Source of the DNA: a virus
Taxonomy: Duplodnaviria > Heunggongvirae > Uroviricota > Caudoviricetes
Length of the DNA stretch: 64,000 bases
Virus record (IMG/VR): IMGVR_UViG_3300029904_000001
Coordinates: 1-64,000 of that record
Strand: one strand, 5' to 3'
A program made the translations under genes and the position numbers. Position 1 is the stretch's first letter; every line of letters starts with the position of its first letter. Positions 1 through 64,000 of this stretch are shown here, one piece after another. Under the pieces are notes generated by a model. It was not told the origin of the DNA. It ran no database searches and saw nothing but the letters and a program-made list of their open reading frames with translations.

Positions 1-169
1 GTTTGTCAACGGCAAATGGGAGGAGTTCGGCACTTACAGGTCAGAGGTTGACCTCACTCTCTATCTCAAAAAGACAGATGCCGAGTCTACCTATCAGAAG
101 ATTACTGACAATACCCTTGCTACAATTGCCAAGACAGTAGTAGGTGCAATCAATGAGAACACTGGCAAT

Positions 170-1315
170 GTGACGAGGATAGACAGGGCTGTGGGGAATC
201 CTACTGTAAATGCAATCGTTCCTACAGCAATACGGACTAATTTCGCCATAAGCATTAAAGGTATCATAAGTAGTGCTAACGGATATAATATTTACTCTCC
301 CATAGATGTCAATAAGGGAGATACAATTGTATTATACTCTACCGCCTCCAAGGATGTTTCTATAATTACCTCTATTGAGCCGGGCTCAGAACCAGACAAT
401 TTAAAGGTAATCAATACCCTTCTGCCAGGAGGCAGGGCAGACTATAGATATGTCTGGACAGCCCCCGAGGACATGACAGTTGTACTGTGCTCGGGTGAAT
501 ACGGCAGGGTCCTTTTTAAGGATGTCTTTTTGATTAAAAGTTCACAGGGTGTGAATCTTGCGGACAACTCCTACATGCAGTACCTGCACAAGATGTATGA
601 GGAGTACGGTGCTGTGTACAACAAGGAGACTGGGTACTGGGAGTACGGTGACTTGAAGGATATGACTGAGGAGGACTGCTTCTTGGCGGCTTTCTATGCT
701 TTGGATGCTGTTGTAACAGCTGATACCGCAAGTAAATTGGAAGGGTTTAATGGGGCATTAACTAATAGAGTGTATCGTAGTAAAAGCAGGACTTTTTTTA
801 CTAAAAATATTGGAACAAGCACATTCTCGGGGAGCACTTTCTGCATATCAACATGTTTTGCTCACAATGATAGTTTGGAATATATTAAATTGTTCAGCCG
901 AAATGGTATAAGAATTAGGTCTTGTGGTGCGGCATTTTATAGGTGTTTGTCTTTGCGTACAATAGATACTATATTTATTGTTGATTCGTTGTTAGCCAAT
1001 TTTCAAAATGCATTTTTTCAGTGTTATAAACTCAAAACTATAAAAATACAAGGATTAAGGTCACCAGTCTCATTCCAAGACTCTCCCCTCCTTTCCTACG
1101 AGTCCCTTAACTACCTTGTCACCAACGCAGCCAACACAGCAGCCATTACTGTGACAGTGCACCCTACTACTTACAGTTATCTAACAGGTACTGCGCAGCC
1201 CACTGAGGAAGTCGGGGGAGCCACTGAGGAGTGGCAGGCACTTGTCACAACAGCGCAGAGCAAGCAGATTTCATTCGCAGTCCCCGAGGAGACACAGAGT
1301 GAAGTAACCGAATAA
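170..1315 (+). CDS. structural protein with leucine-rich-repeat-like central segment (tail fiber/receptor-binding candidate); frame is open to window start so may be 5'-partial
   Basis: Long ORF in the higher-GC left segment. Middle has LRR-like repeats (LEYIKLF.., KLKTIKIQGL) and the C-terminus is Ser/Thr/Ala-rich. No in-frame TGA. Confidence 0.35.
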   Translation: MTRIDRAVGNPTVNAIVPTAIRTNFAISIKGIISSANGYNIYSPIDVNKGDTIVLYSTASKDVSIITSIEPGSEPDNLKVINTLLPGGRADYRYVWTAPEDMTVVLCSGEYGRVLFKDVFLIKSSQGVNLADNSYMQYLHKMYEEYGAVYNKETGYWEYGDLKDMTEEDCFLAAFYALDAVVTADTASKLEGFNGALTNRVYRSKSRTFFTKNIGTSTFSGSTFCISTCFAHNDSLEYIKLFSRNGIRIRSCGAAFYRCLSLRTIDTIFIVDSLLANFQNAFFQCYKLKTIKIQGLRSPVSFQDSPLLSYESLNYLVTNAANTAAITVTVHPTTYSYLTGTAQPTEEVGGATEEWQALVTTAQSKQISFAVPEETQSEVTE

Positions 1316-1327
1316 AACAATAAAATT

Positions 1328-1915
1328 ATGATAGTCATTACAGAAAAAGAGGTTTACTCCGATGCAGGTAAACTGGTACACAGAATAGGAACTGAGTCCT
1401 ATTTCACAAGATGCATCAAGCTGAGTGATGATGTTGACACTGACTTCGAGGAGGTGGATGAGATTCCTGTCCATGAGGAAGAGGAGGCAGTCCCCTTTGA
1501 GGAGCAGGCCAAGATTGTCCTCAAGGCACAGACAAGGCAGGTCACTACATTCAGCAACAACGAGGCCTTAAAGATAAGGGATTTGCTTGATGATTGGTCT
1601 GACTTCATTGGACAGACACTGAATGCAGGGCAGATAGTAAGGACTGCCGAGGGCCTTTGGAGGGTGAGACAGGAGCATGTGGCCCAGAAGCACTATGTCC
1701 CCTCTATACACACTGCGGCCCTCTATGAGAGGATAGTCAGAGACCATGAGGGTACTGAAAGTGACCCTATCCCCTATGCCCCTCCCATGGAGATATTTAA
1801 TGGCAAGTACTACACTCAGGACGGGGTCAAGTATTACTGCAACAGGGATTCTGAGCAGGCACTGACGCATAATCTGAGTGAGCTGGTTGGACTTTATGTA
1901 AATGCGGTGTCATGA
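1328..1915 (+). CDS. hypothetical protein (acidic N-terminal half)
   Basis: 195-aa ORF immediately downstream of previous gene, same strand, higher-GC segment. Confidence 0.4.
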   Translation: MIVITEKEVYSDAGKLVHRIGTESYFTRCIKLSDDVDTDFEEVDEIPVHEEEEAVPFEEQAKIVLKAQTRQVTTFSNNEALKIRDLLDDWSDFIGQTLNAGQIVRTAEGLWRVRQEHVAQKHYVPSIHTAALYERIVRDHEGTESDPIPYAPPMEIFNGKYYTQDGVKYYCNRDSEQALTHNLSELVGLYVNAVS

Positions 1916-2054
1916 GCAGGATAATCTTACATCTCGAATAGGACGGACTGCTGCTCAATGCAAACACAGGCATCACCTCCCATAGTGATACCCGTGAGTA
2001 AGCCTTGTATTAATGCTGCAAATATAGCCTATTTGTGCAAAAAAGTTTATAAAA

Positions 2055-61780: not shown

Positions 61781-62935
61781 TTGTATTCACAAGATTTAAT
61801 AAACGAGTATAATAGCACAAAGGACGAAATTTTACAGACGAAACTAAAAACTAGTATCAATGATCATTTAACTGATTATGCTCGTATGTTAAGTTTTCGC
61901 AATAATGAGTTTGTAATATCGTTTTTACCAAAAGGAAAAGAACCAAAATATTCTGGAGAAAAAATATGAAGTAGAGAGAATCGTCAATCAGGTAAACCAA
62001 CTAAAATTCTTCAAAAAATAGTAAAAAGAAAGTTTACCAATCGTGACTATGAGCTACTAAACAATCTCTTAAAGAGTAAAATATTAAATCAAAAAGAGTT
62101 TGAAGTAGTAGAAGGAAAAGATATTCAATATTGGTACAATGAAGTAAATAATGATGAAGGTGCAACATTGTCAAACTCTTGTATGAGATATGCAGATTGT
62201 TCACAATATTTAGAATTATATGCTGATGTGTGTAAAATGCTTGTCTTATTTAATGAAGATAAAAGTTTAATATGCGGACGTGCTCTTCTCTGGGAAATTG
62301 ATGATAAGATTTATATGGATAGAGTTTATTATTCTAGAGATTGGTATTACGATTTGTTTATTGATTATGCACAAGAACACAAATTTGCATATCGAGCAAA
62401 TAATTCTTTACTTTCAACTGGTAGTAATCAATATTGGTATTCTCCACAAAACAATTATAAATCACCTATATTTTTAAGTTTACATGTTGAATTACCCAAA
62501 AGCTATGATAGGCTTCCCTATATAGATTCTTTTAGATATTTATTTGATGATATCTTATATGATCATCTTCCTACTTCCGATGAATTAAATTATTTAGAGG
62601 AAATTGATGCGTGCGATTGTGCAGATGGTGAAACTAGTAAACTTCTATATATTACATGTTATTCTTGTGGTAAATCAGCATGGAATGTAGAAGGAGAGGA
62701 AAATTCTTTATATTGGTCTGATCACGATGGGCGTTATTATTGTGATGATTGTTGTAGTTGGGTAGAGGTGCTTGAAGATTATATACACAATGACGATATA
62801 GTTGATTGTGTTGATGAAGATGACTATTCATTTATAGACGCACGTTGGGATATTGAACGAGACTCTAATTATATCAAACACGAAGGAACATATTATCACA
62901 TTAATAGCGAATACGCACAAGAAAATTTAGTATAA
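61781..62935 (+). CDS. Cys-rich protein (385 aa) joined across one TGA=Trp
   Basis: Track ORFs 61781-61969 and 62168-62935 are in the same frame, separated only by TGA at 61967. C-terminal CDCADGE..CYSCG..CDDCC cluster. Confidence 0.45.
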
Positions 62936-62937
62936 AG

Positions 62938-63702
62938 ATGAATAAAATTAGATATGATTTACTTCCAAATTTAGGATTGGAAGAAGTACACAAATTATTT
63001 ACATCTAAATTAAATAAATATCAAAAAAATCAATGGACTCAAGGACTATCTTGGAGTGATGTTTTAAATTCTCTTGAATATCATTTAAGCGAATTTAAGA
63101 AAGGTAACGACTTTAATAAAGAAGGTTTACTTAATATTGGAGAAGTTGCCATGAATGCATTAATACTCTGTCAATATTATCATACATTCCCTCAAGGTGA
63201 CGACAGAGTAATAAAACAAGTTAATTCACCTATTATCGTAAGCGATCTTGATGATGTTATTTTTGATTTCGTAGGAGCATATGAAAAACGTTTTGGTAAA
63301 ATGTCCAGTTATTGGAAAGGTGATTATAATATGTCTGAAAATCTAAAAGAATTACAAAAAGATAAAGATTTTTGGGTAAATATGCCAGTTAAAACTATAG
63401 TTCCACTAGAAATTGATTATTATGTAACAGCAAGATCTATTCCTATTGAATGGACACAAGAAGCTATTCAAAAGAACAATCTTCCAAAAGCTCCAATTTA
63501 TAGTCTTCCTTGGAATGAGTCAAAAATCGAGACTTTAAAAGAACTCGAAGCTGATATAATGGTAGACGATAAATTCGAGACATATAAGGAGTGTAAACAA
63601 AACGGAATATTTTGTTATTTAGTTACTACTGAGGCTAATAAGAGATATGACGTTGGACATCATCGTATTAAATCATTAGCCGATCTTAAAAATTTAAAGT
63701 AA
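62938..63702 (+). CDS. HAD-superfamily 5'(3')-deoxyribonucleotidase (NT5C-like) with N-terminal extension
   Basis: ..IIVSDLDDVIFDF.. (DxDx[TV] motif I) and ..ADIMVDDK.. (motif IV). Confidence 0.5.
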   Translation: MNKIRYDLLPNLGLEEVHKLFTSKLNKYQKNQWTQGLSWSDVLNSLEYHLSEFKKGNDFNKEGLLNIGEVAMNALILCQYYHTFPQGDDRVIKQVNSPIIVSDLDDVIFDFVGAYEKRFGKMSSYWKGDYNMSENLKELQKDKDFWVNMPVKTIVPLEIDYYVTARSIPIEWTQEAIQKNNLPKAPIYSLPWNESKIETLKELEADIMVDDKFETYKECKQNGIFCYLVTTEANKRYDVGHHRIKSLADLKNLK

Positions 63703-63704
63703 TG

Positions 63705-64000
63705 ACATATAAAGAATTTATAGAAGGATATGCTAATATCTCTGAAGAAAACTTTAACTTATTAGTAAAGTTTTACGATGGAAAAGTGCCATTTTATATG
63801 GAGTATTTTTGAGAAACAGCTAATAAGTCTGAAATTTTTAGTTATATGCTAGTGGCTAAAATAAAGCAATATCGTATTCTATCTCTTGCAGATGAAGTAT
63901 CACTTTTAAACGTAACTTTTCCTTTGTGTAATTTTCCAGAGATTTGCTCAAATGTTTGAACTGAGTGCTCAGAAGATTATGATTTTTATTTAACTTGGTA
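63705..64000 (+). CDS. hypothetical protein, 3'-partial at window end (contains TGA=Trp)
   Basis: ATG 63705; frame open to end of window. Confidence 0.3.

Follow-up and report, generated by a model that had tools for sequence, protein, structure and literature searches.

Gene content of the window and identity of the phage

The stretch of DNA analysed here (the window, 64 kb) carries approximately 82 called genes, and 78 in-frame TGA codons are spread over 25 of them. The minus strand carries a 586-aa VanY/M15-like peptidase-domain protein (7456..9216; 10 TGA, 0 TGG), whose Pfam VanY score of 24.4 bits is just below the 25-bit cutoff and whose homologues carry PF02557. Also on this strand are two genes at 5935-6729 and 6927-7475 (5935..7475; together 14 TGA and 2 TGG by codon counts), for which Pfam and PHROG searches returned no match, and a RepL-like gene of 176 aa (12797..13327; Pfam RepL, E=1.3e-8; 2 TGA, 0 TGG). 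The plus strand carries a block of about 30 mostly small genes (16581..32376; 4 TGA, 78 TGG, GC3 ~0.2), including those for an SPFH/Band_7 protein, a glucosaminidase and a 606-aa Ro60-like protein. A tRNA array, identified with ARAGORN and Rfam at 31482..36547 (plus strand), encodes tRNAs for His, Gln, Glu, Leu(UAG), Pro, Met, Asn, Arg(UCU) and Gly.

The replication genes also lie on the plus strand. DNA polymerase A (PolA; 670 aa, 49750..51762; 6 TGA, 6 TGG) has Pfam DNA_pol_A and exo domains. It is accompanied by an SNF2/ResIII-type helicase (409 aa, 52667..53896; Pfam Helicase_C and ResIII; 5 TGA, 2 TGG), a DnaB-like helicase (380 aa, 54908..56050; Pfam DnaB_C; 3 TGA, 1 TGG), a Toprim primase (335 aa, 58953..59960; Pfam Toprim_2; 3 TGA, 2 TGG) and an RNase H (160 aa, 46194..46676; Pfam RNase_H, and PDB RNase HI at E=8e-22; 4 TGA, 1 TGG). 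Free-standing LAGLIDADG, GIY-YIG and HNH genes are present in the window; two of these, both on the plus strand, are a GIY-YIG/NUMOD homing endonuclease (270 aa, 46667..47479; Pfam NUMOD1; 7 TGA, 0 TGG) and a LAGLIDADG/NUMOD homing endonuclease (331 aa, 44123..45118; Pfam LAGLIDADG_3 and NUMOD1; 4 TGA, 0 TGG), the latter aligning with I-HjeMI and I-AniI in the PDB over its domain 2 only. An Rfam search of the window gave no hit to a group I or group II intron, and no split core gene was seen there.

The window was 100% identical to ENA contig ERZ27239284:k119_144109 (176,907 bp), and was also colinear and identical with a contig of 174,393 bp; both lengths fall within the 145-192 kb of the Zeta group of crAss-like phages. 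No near match to the window was found in the phage collection searched. The PolA protein is 54% identical to that of Kehishuvirus, and its DNA is 65-70% identical to that of IAS virus and the Bacteroides crAss phages. By size, gene content and the literature, the window fits a part of a crAss-like gut phage of ~177 kb and of the large Zeta type. The sequence comparisons behind this placement cover PolA, the conserved 606-aa protein and the order of genes; TerL, portal, MCP and the RNAP subunits are encoded outside the window.

TGA is a sense codon

The in-frame TGA codons are confirmed as real and far above chance expectation. Under the standard code (code 11) the affected genes fall into same-frame pieces: 11 for the M15-like protein, eight for the GIY-YIG and five for the LAGLIDADG endonuclease, seven for PolA, six for the SNF2 helicase, five for RNase H, and four each for the DnaB-like helicase and the primase. 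A 222-aa metallophosphatase (27719..28387, plus strand; 2 TGA, 4 TGG) is broken into three. The fragment counts agree with the earlier note, made from the sequence alone, which held that PolA, the primase, both helicases, the metallophosphatase and the M15 lysin are split by TGA alone. That note also spoke of dozens of conserved genes intact only if TGA is sense; the dependence on TGA stood, and 25 of the ~82 called genes are concerned.

The comparison of translation tables 4 and 11 that the note had proposed was carried out with a crude self-trained gene call. With TGA as sense, coding density was 0.71 and median length 153 aa, against 0.59 and 109 aa under the standard code; reading TAG as sense lowered the density to 0.58. 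Pfam matches cross the TGA codons, as in PolA (DNA_pol_A, 29-380/381), RNase H (2-138/141) and the DnaB-like helicase (DnaB_C, 1-253/255). TAA and TAG remain stops, as had been claimed: the called genes terminate with TAA (65) or TAG (15), and when ORFs of 23 standard-code relatives were aligned to the window, all 28 of the stops inside coding-strand alignments were TGA, TAA and TAG occurring in antisense shadow matches only.

That the TGAs are true stops, left by pseudogenes, assembly errors or rare read-through, has nothing in its favour beyond the standard-code reading itself, and is refuted by several observations. The identical (100%) sequence was assembled independently in several samples, each essential replication gene holds 3-6 TGA codons, and homology is never interrupted by TAA or TAG. 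The sites are evenly distributed along genes (KS p=0.57) rather than placed at gaps or ends, and the coding signal persists downstream of them. We regard true stops as exceedingly improbable.

TGA is read as tryptophan

Among the sites covered by homologues, 30 of 48 TGA sites (63%) were Trp-dominated, as were 63 of 103 TGG sites (61%), and the residues aligned to TGA were Trp in 45%, TGA in 9% and Gly in 1.7%. In-frame TGA is absent from more than 30 of the relatives, so that their aligned W is encoded by TGG. Orthologous TGA/TGG swaps at the same codons were found in the TGA-using relatives L003 (9+6), L051 (4+1) and L053 (2). With TGA as Trp, Trp content rises from 1.09% to 1.60%, which agrees with the relatives.

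TGA occupies Trp positions in the catalytic cores of RNase H, PolA and the M15 domain. In RNase H, TGA 46497 falls opposite the DLW tryptophan of E. coli RNase HI, as the earlier note had stated. In PolA, the TGAs at nt 50101, 50935 and 51394 correspond to W in 25/32, 30/32 and 32/32 relatives, respectively. Across 76 homologues of the M15-like protein, W is the commonest residue at 8 of the 10 TGA sites, and one more site is Y/W. TGA 59376 of the primase is W in 4/4 relatives, with W, TGA or Y at 59373 and 59577, and W or TGA occupies sites 52859, 53141 and 53768 of the SNF2 helicase in its relatives. The GIY-YIG TGAs at 46745, 46811 and 47366 are W in standard-code Kehishuvirus GIY endonucleases. 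Motif 1 of the LAGLIDADG endonuclease does read Y-W-LGFF-W-ADG when both of its TGAs are taken as W, but the PDB homologues align with the second domain only, so that a conserved Trp at these two sites is presumptive. Residues at the TGA sites of the DnaB-like helicase are mixed because its relatives align weakly (24% identity). The Metallophos match (3-172) of the metallophosphatase at 27719..28387 spans both of its TGAs, the first flanked by catalytic motifs; both lie at variable positions rather than at a conserved Trp.

A pair of tandem paralogues (21037-21228 and 21233-21406), in which TGA had been said to stand opposite a TGG-encoded Trp, proved suggestive only. The match of YW to Y-TGA requires a two-residue shift, and gapless BLASTP pairs TGA with Gly; a third paralogue also has YW. 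This Gly pairing, together with two low-identity DnaB sites that face Gly in relatives, would speak for TGA as glycine. Code 25, in which TGA is glycine, belongs to the Gracilibacteria, the Absconditabacteria and their phages. The alignments rule this reading out, since Gly amounts to 1.7% of the aligned residues, the core Trp of RNase H, PolA and M15 is TGA, and strains interchange TGA and TGG. Selenocysteine was likewise excluded, as there are 78 sites, many of them hydrophobic and not Cys-like, and Rfam gave neither SECIS nor tRNA-Sec above threshold. Glycine and selenocysteine together can be given next to no credence. UGA is thus translated as tryptophan in this phage, and UAA and UAG terminate.

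Mosaic use of TGA

TGA makes up a fraction of 0.93 of the Trp codons in the minus-strand block, 0.05 in the 16.5-32.4 kb block and 0.37 in the replication block. The other two-fold codons served as an internal calibration: the A-ending share for Lys, Glu, Gln, Leu and Arg is 0.78-0.92, 0.68-0.91 and 0.79-0.93 in the same three blocks. In the 16.5-32.4 kb block AT bias predicts ~75% TGA where 5% is observed, while the minus-strand block is at the neutral level. Heterogeneity in TGA use (G=196) exceeded the simulated maximum of 130. A mosaic thus exists and is under selection; the departure of these shares from the neutral 0.7-0.9 indicates that the TGA-free state is actively maintained and not historical.

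The four TGAs of the block at 16581..32376 are confined to three genes, the metallophosphatase at 27719..28387 among them. TGA is also avoided as a terminator, ending none of 27 genes in the block compared with 19-35% of long ORFs in standard-code relatives, and the depletion is shared by relatives L051 and L047. Position and gene content suggest that these are early genes. Being almost without TGA, whether as sense or as stop, this presumed early block is readable under either code.

Genes of the replication block are either TGA-rich or TGA-free, with eleven ameliorated genes lacking TGA. The cellular-type genes at 39771..44052 (plus strand, by Pfam) include an IMPDH/GMP-reductase-like gene (0 TGA, 5 TGG), GroEL (0/2) and a metallophosphatase (0/7); one small gene within this span, at 41337-41699, has a single TGA. 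TGA-free genes elsewhere in the replication block are a ferritin-like gene (47961-48575; 0/5), RlaP (60625-61692; 0/8) and a gene at 62938-63699 (0/6). GC3 of the TGA-free replication-block genes is low (0.13-0.22). The C-terminus of the tail fibre (2-1315) has a GC content of 41% and no TGA, and its homologues were found in crAss-like contigs of ~95-105 kb. Since no TGA occurs in the late tail-fibre gene of either the window or relative L056, recent import from standard-code phages also contributes, and timing is not the sole cause of the mosaic. As a hint to the host, homologues of the tail-fibre module lie in standard-code crAss-like contigs.

The mosaic bears on whether the host itself uses code 4, with no RF2 and a tRNA-Trp(UCA) as in Mycoplasmatales, in which case the phage would share its code and need no decoder. 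The neutral TGA level of the minus-strand block (0.93) is what such a host would give, and no suppressor tRNA was found in the window's array or in the matching region of four relatives. In PMC12386605, moreover, four out of the five likely-clade genomes yielded no suppressor, and Bacillota hosts were predicted for some members. However, a code-4 host would bring AT-bias equilibrium everywhere and make TGA the main Trp codon throughout, whereas a part of this genome can be read in the standard code: TGA accounts for 4 and TGG for 78 of the Trp codons in the 16.5-32.4 kb block (GC3 ~0.2), eleven replication-block genes have none, and the depletion is conserved among relatives. The close relative L003 also encodes its own tRNA(UCA), and the standard code is that of both the known hosts of crAss-like phages and the tail-fibre module's donors. 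A code-4 host thus appears improbable. Avoidance of TGA despite AT-rich third positions favours a phage-driven, probably timed, suppression instead; of the two alternatives in the earlier note, table 4 or phage-driven suppression, one of which is indeed needed, it favours the second.

Search for the decoder

The search for a tRNA with anticodon UCA, also proposed in that note, used ARAGORN (including low-threshold and intron-tolerant runs), Rfam and a custom scan for anticodon arms. Neither UCA nor CCA occurs as an anticodon in the array at 31482..36547, and no tRNA(UCA), tRNA-Trp, release factor or TrpRS was found in the window or the next 10 kb of the ~177-kb genome. The canonical decoder is therefore absent from these 64 kb. 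No tRNA(UCA) was found in the syntenic early/tRNA regions of four TGA-using relatives. Ordinary tRNA(UCA) genes are present in L003 and in another relative, L049. The Ro60-like protein is accompanied by tandem Y-RNA-like tRNA mimics.

These results raise the alternative that the phage has UGA decoded with no canonical suppressor tRNA of its own, through inactivation of the host RF2 with near-cognate reading by tRNA-Trp(CCA), a modified or edited host tRNA, or an unconventional phage RNA. In addition to the negative searches, it would agree with the finding that A follows TGA slightly more often than it follows all codons (0.46 vs 0.35, p=0.03), but this context effect lacks significance when TGG is the reference (p=0.12). 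Near-cognate reading rarely gives efficient decoding, and 78 TGA in 64 kb, several per essential gene, demand that decoding be efficient. The tRNA-like RNAs of the array have no UCA anticodon loop, the search spans a minority of the genome, and L003 and L049 possess ordinary tRNA(UCA) genes. Published surveys are on its side: Borges et al. (bioRxiv 10.1101/2021.08.26.457843) detected TGA suppressors in no more than ~35% of code-4 phages, and of five genomes from the likely clade a single one yielded a suppressor (PMC12386605). On balance we consider decoding of this kind unlikely.

Comparison with known systems

TGA-to-Trp recoding is already published for Zeta crAss-like phages, and the window adds another documented case. 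It was described for the groups Beta, Delta and Zeta of crAss-like phages, chiefly among late genes (PMC7886860), and the Zeta clade is listed as opal-suppressing, with genomes of 173-177 kb and 30-33% GC (PMC12386605, Table 1). The opal-suppressing members are Lera/ct1yV3, c815351, ctvkg4, ctPTU4, ctddo16 and 3075_90106 (PMC12386605; Zeta group of Yutin et al. 2021, PMC7886860). The present phage has in common with them a size of ~177 kb, a GC content of ~31-33%, PolA, a tRNA block, homing endonucleases, and the use of TGA as Trp by some ORFs, among them those for lysins and DNA-processing enzymes; in several of these phages, too, no suppressor tRNA is detectable. Lera has tRNA(UCA) and tRNA(CUA), whereas the window has neither. 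The Zeta papers emphasise recoding of structural and late genes, while in the window recoding extends to the replication core, varying from gene to gene.

The TGA-recoded gut phage clades Agate and Jade, which are of different phage lineages, share standard-code-compatible early genes and few TGA stops with the present phage, and in the "code switch" model lysis and structural genes are recoded and replication genes "variably" so (Borges et al.). Jade has a suppressor/TrpRS/RF1 module, and nothing similar is present in the window. The TAG-to-Gln crAss-like phages (code 15) belong to the same order; their recoded codon is concentrated in part of the genome and the recoding is validated by proteomics (PMC9523058); they recode another codon to another amino acid, and TAG is an ordinary stop in the window. 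The Mycoplasmatales and Entomoplasmatales and their phages (code 4) likewise read UGA as Trp, stop at UAA and UAG, and are AT-rich. In them the code is a property of the cell and Trp is encoded mainly by UGA in all parts of the genome, unlike in the window, where the TGA share is 5% in one block and 93% in another.

Proposed mechanism and implications

We consider it likely that the window derives from a Zeta-type crAss-like phage which reads UGA as Trp, in a mosaic manner, through phage-driven suppression in a standard-code host. The mechanism would most likely be that published for recoded gut phages, with the model of Borges et al. as precedent. The host would use the standard code, and what becomes active during infection would be a tRNA that reads UGA and receives its Trp from the host TrpRS, or some other means of overriding RF2. 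TGA would then gate middle and late functions at translation: the TGA-poor 16-kb block would be translated correctly under either code, and the minus-strand genes, homing endonucleases and core replication genes would be full-length only once UGA is read as Trp. In this scheme we infer which code the host uses, when the switch takes place, and what the decoder is and where it lies.

A more far-reaching version, which we hold to be doubtful, is that this ~177-kb crAss-like clade decodes at least 78 UGA per 64 kb without a canonical suppressor tRNA, by machinery encoded in the TGA-free early block. If so, host termination or Trp decoding would be reprogrammed via inactivation of RF2, alteration of the host tRNA-Trp or an unconventional RNA. 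The absence of the decoder from the tRNA array of this phage and from that of four relatives sharpens the question of code switching raised in the literature. For annotation, standard-code gene calling fragments about one third of the genes in the window, every core replication enzyme included, and table 4 repairs them. This phage genome is written in two dialects, and calibration against its own A/G-ending codon pairs allows them to be quantified.

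Genome and affiliation

The window has a GC content of 31% and carries eight tRNAs detected by ARAGORN. At the DNA level, the PolA gene shares 65-70% identity with those of IAS virus and Bacteroides crAss-like phages; the protein is 54% identical to that of Kehishuvirus. Exact-sequence lookup of two TGA-free window proteins identified an ENA metagenome contig, ERZ27239284:k119_144109 (176,907 bp), with which the window is colinear at 100% identity, base 1 of the window being base 176,876 of the contig on the reverse strand; a second matching contig, from a different sample, is 174,393 bp long. 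Megablast of 24 kb of the window against GenBank phages gave no match, and tblastn with the helicase found distant phages only. A search of IMG/VR for one exact 40-mer of the window was likewise negative. A large-genome 'Zeta' sub-clade of crAss-like phages, 173-177 kb in size and opal-suppressing, has been described (PMC12386605 Table 1; PMC7886860), and the ~177 kb genome, 31% GC, PolA, tRNA block and homing endonucleases fit a 'Zeta'-like phage, with TerL, MCP and portal lying outside the window.

In-frame TGA is read as tryptophan

An earlier note had observed that genes of the window are intact only if TGA is sense and had interpreted the codon as Trp; both the observation and the interpretation proved right. 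A simple self-trained gene call gave a coding density of 0.71 and a median length of 153 aa with TGA as sense, against 0.59 and 109 aa under the standard code (code 11), while the density with TAG as sense was 0.58. The ~82 genes contain 78 in-frame TGA and 167 TGG codons, with at least one TGA in 25 genes. Under code 11, PolA was broken into 7 fragments, the SNF2 helicase into 6, DnaB and the primase into 4 each, one metallophosphatase into 3 and a 586-aa M15-like protein into 11, in agreement with the earlier statement that TGA alone splits these genes; RNase H and the GIY-YIG and LAGLIDADG endonucleases fell into 5, 8 and 5 fragments, respectively. Pfam domain matches extend through the TGA codons. 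When ORFs of 23 standard-code relatives were compared with the window, stops within coding-strand alignments were TGA at 28 of 28 sites, and TAA and TAG were confined to antisense shadow alignments.

When the TGA codons were masked as X, that of RNase H at nt 46497 aligned with the Trp of DLW in E. coli RNase HI, as had been claimed, and the PolA codons at nt 50101, 50935 and 51394 faced Trp in 25/32, 30/32 and 32/32 related loci. Among the 48 TGA sites with homologue coverage, 30 (63%) were Trp- or TGA-dominated, compared with 63 of 103 TGG sites (61%). Residues facing TGA were Trp (45%), TGA (9%), then Ile, Tyr, Phe and Val; Gly made up 1.7%. More than 30 relatives are without any in-frame TGA, so that their Trp is encoded by TGG. 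An alignment of the M15-like protein with 76 homologues showed Trp as the most frequent residue at eight of its 10 TGA sites and Y/W at one more, and the Trp-type sites include the zinc-site region (S-W-H..G.A.D, H-W-H); a PDB sequence search with the M15 domain gave no match. Orthologous codons also exchange TGA and TGG between close relatives: 9 TGA-to-TGG and 6 TGG-to-TGA swaps were counted in L003, 4 and 1 in L051, and two swaps in L053. The Trp content rises from 1.09% to 1.60% once TGA is counted, equalling the level in standard-code relatives, and TGA codons are spread uniformly along the genes (KS p=0.57). Taken together, the findings on what TGA encodes rule out Gly (code 25), selenocysteine, pseudogenes and truncations.

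Two further arguments of the earlier note held in part. An alignment of small tandem paralogues setting TGA against TGG is only suggestive: the YW/Y-TGA match appears after a two-residue shift, but gapless BLASTP sets the TGA of the copy at 21233-21403 against Gly. The third paralogue (21408-21623) likewise has YW. The three paralogues, at 21052-21623 (+), measure 58, 57 and 72 aa with the N-terminus MW(I/V)A.DK, and two of them hold one TGA each in a surrounding block that is otherwise TGA-free. The first LAGLIDADG motif, with TGA-encoded Trp, had been read correctly, but solved structures match the second domain only, so that the motif speaks for continuity of the ORF and not for a conserved Trp. 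In the metallophosphatase at 27719, both TGA codons occupy variable positions; catalytic motifs flank the first, so that the TGA codons must still be read through.

TGA use is mosaic

TGA use differs to an extreme degree from gene to gene: G is 196, and none of 20,000 binomial simulations exceeded 130. The A-ending share of AAR, GAR, CAR, TTR and AGR was used as an internal yardstick. The minus-strand genes at 5.9-13.3 kb contain 26 TGA and 2 TGG (TGA share 0.93; A-ending 0.78-0.92), the plus-strand block at 16.5-32.4 kb 4 TGA and 78 TGG (0.05; A-ending 0.68-0.91), and the replication block at 39-64 kb 42 TGA and 72 TGG (0.37; A-ending 0.79-0.93). TGA is thus at the neutral level of AT bias in the minus-strand block, and strongly selected against at 16.5-32.4 kb. 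None of the 27 genes of this TGA-poor block ends in TGA, compared with 19-35% of long ORFs in standard-code crAss-like relatives, and the syntenic regions of L051 and L047 show the same TGA depletion. The codon context of TGA and TGG showed no convincing difference.

The replication block is bimodal gene by gene: homing endonucleases, RNase H, PolA, both helicases and the primase use TGA, and IMPDH-like, GroEL, second metallophosphatase, ferritin-like, M42 peptidase, RlaP and other genes are TGA-free, with a fully ameliorated GC3 of 0.13-0.22. Cellular-type auxiliary genes of this block, at 39771-43339, 47961-48575 and 51773-52657 (+), all TGA-free, comprise an IMPDH/GMP-reductase-like gene, a full-length GroEL-type chaperonin, a ferritin-like gene and an M42/M20-like peptidase; a Cpn10-like gene is present in the related loci L056 and L057. 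Free-standing homing endonuclease genes lie among the replication genes (LAGLIDADG, 44123-45118; GIY-YIG, 46667-47479; HNH, 56817-57557; +), and a further one lies at 19065-20039 of L034, the sequence running 10 kb past the window end. Every Trp of the LAGLIDADG and GIY-YIG enzymes is TGA (11 TGA, 0 TGG), and the HNH gene uses TGG only (0 TGA, 4 TGG).

Recent import is a second source of TGA-free genes, as in the tail fibre, whose C-terminal fragment at 2-1315 (+) has 41% GC and no TGA. Its homologues (43-68% identity) occur mostly in crAss-like contigs of ~95-105 kb, and the full tail fibre of L056 (0 TGA, 7 TGG) adjoins a TGA-rich lysis cassette. The fragment resembles a receptor-binding module acquired by recent exchange and offers a hint to host range. 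Positions 1-4000, and especially 2-1315, have 41% GC against 31% overall.

The divergent minus- and plus-strand blocks are separated by a gene-poor region (9200-16500) containing a RepL-like gene at 12797-13327 (-); short 22-nt tandem repeats occur at 10885-10934 and 13522-13563. Repeats across the sparsely coding 9-17 kb are unremarkable; the region could have an origin or regulatory role.

Search for the decoder

The tRNA array contains, by ARAGORN, tRNAs for His, Gln, Glu, Leu (UAG), Pro, Met, Asn and Gly; a tRNA-Arg(UCU) at 34434-34506 (+) was found by Rfam only (39.7 bits) and missed by ARAGORN defaults. Neither program found a UCA or CCA anticodon in the array, and intron-tolerant or low-threshold ARAGORN and a custom anticodon-arm scan of the window added nothing credible. 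Two 'tca' calls among the 102-210 produced by very-low-threshold, intron-permitting ARAGORN lay inside ORFs and were treated as noise. The tRNA(UCA) and release factor brought up in the earlier note were thus not found, the former in the window or the next 10 kb (L034, where no tRNA was detected), the latter among the window ORFs scanned, which also yielded no TrpRS. L056 and L057 contain no tRNA in the ~10 kb upstream of their tail fibres.

Four relatives that use TGA, L053, L051, L054 and L047, likewise have no tRNA(UCA) in their syntenic early/tRNA regions; their versions of a conserved 606-aa protein are 90%, 82%, 73% and 67% identical, respectively, to that of the window. In L003, a 165.7-kb contig with 72% identity in PolA and 23 in-frame TGA codons, a good tRNA(UCA) directly follows a metallophosphatase gene, and L049, which is more distantly related, carries one within its array. 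The spot in the window homologous to that of L003, at 28385-28526 after the metallophosphatase, contains nothing beyond a terminator-like hairpin and a palindrome. A suppressor went undetected in four of five members of the opal clade with 173-177 kb genomes (PMC12386605), and among code-4 phages the share that carries one is only 35% (bioRxiv 10.1101/2021.08.26.457843). The lack of tRNA(UCA) from the array and the four syntenic regions would suit a non-canonical mechanism of UGA decoding, but a decoder of the ordinary kind may sit in the ~103 kb of genome outside the window and the 10 kb searched, and we regard the non-canonical mechanism as unlikely.

A Ro60-like protein and tRNA mimics

The 606-aa protein (29308-31125) is Ro60-like, with a DxSxS vWA motif, and is among the most conserved of these phages (57-90% identity in the 120 best of 1,278 matches). 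One nr match is named 'cobalamin biosynthesis protein', and Pfam, PHROG and PDB sequence searches gave no match. Immediately 3' of its gene, within the tRNA array, lie tandem YrlA-like (Y-RNA-like) tRNA mimics at 31556-31679, 32386-32511 and 32523-32648 (+), together with a bare hairpin at 32985-33052 (+). Rfam YrlA scores of the tandem RNAs (35.5 and 29.8 bits) are below the gathering threshold of 69. In each mimic, a closing stem of 9 bp encloses a T-arm, an acceptor-like hairpin that is closed (loop GCCA...) and a D-arm; the third copy has an additional anticodon-like hairpin (loop UUGCAGU). Covariation was seen in 8 of 28 pairs across five relatives, and a covariance model found 3-5 copies per related genome (L047, L051, L053, L054).

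Ro60 beside tRNA-like Y RNAs is known from bacteria and some phages (PMC4201824); our literature search found no paper tying Ro60 or Y RNAs to crAss-like phages. No link between the mimics and UGA decoding was seen, and no arrangement of them as permuted suppressor tRNAs yields a UCA anticodon loop. An RlaP-type RNA-repair nucleotidyltransferase is encoded at 60625-61692 (+) and an ATP-dependent DNA/RNA ligase just past the window (L034, 17775-18980). With the tRNA mimics, these suggest that the phage invests in RNA repair or in the biology of tRNA.

Discussion

TGA-to-Trp recoding in crAss-like phages, confined mostly to part of the genome, is already established. This study identifies the genome, shows quantitatively that selection acts on the TGA-free state and that the replication core is recoded gene by gene, and reports the absence of the decoder from the tRNA array of the phage and four relatives. 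Native reading of UGA as Trp by the host gives no reason for avoiding TGA at 16.5-32.4 kb, and we therefore rate it very unlikely. The avoidance matches the published model of a standard-code host, host-compatible early genes and later genes needing the switched code (bioRxiv 10.1101/2021.08.26.457843). The TGA-poor block is probably early, judging from its position beside the tRNA array and its many small genes. In a standard-code host, such early genes would be code-compatible and later genes would depend on the switched code, and a block avoiding TGA in both meanings would be read correctly with or without UGA suppression.
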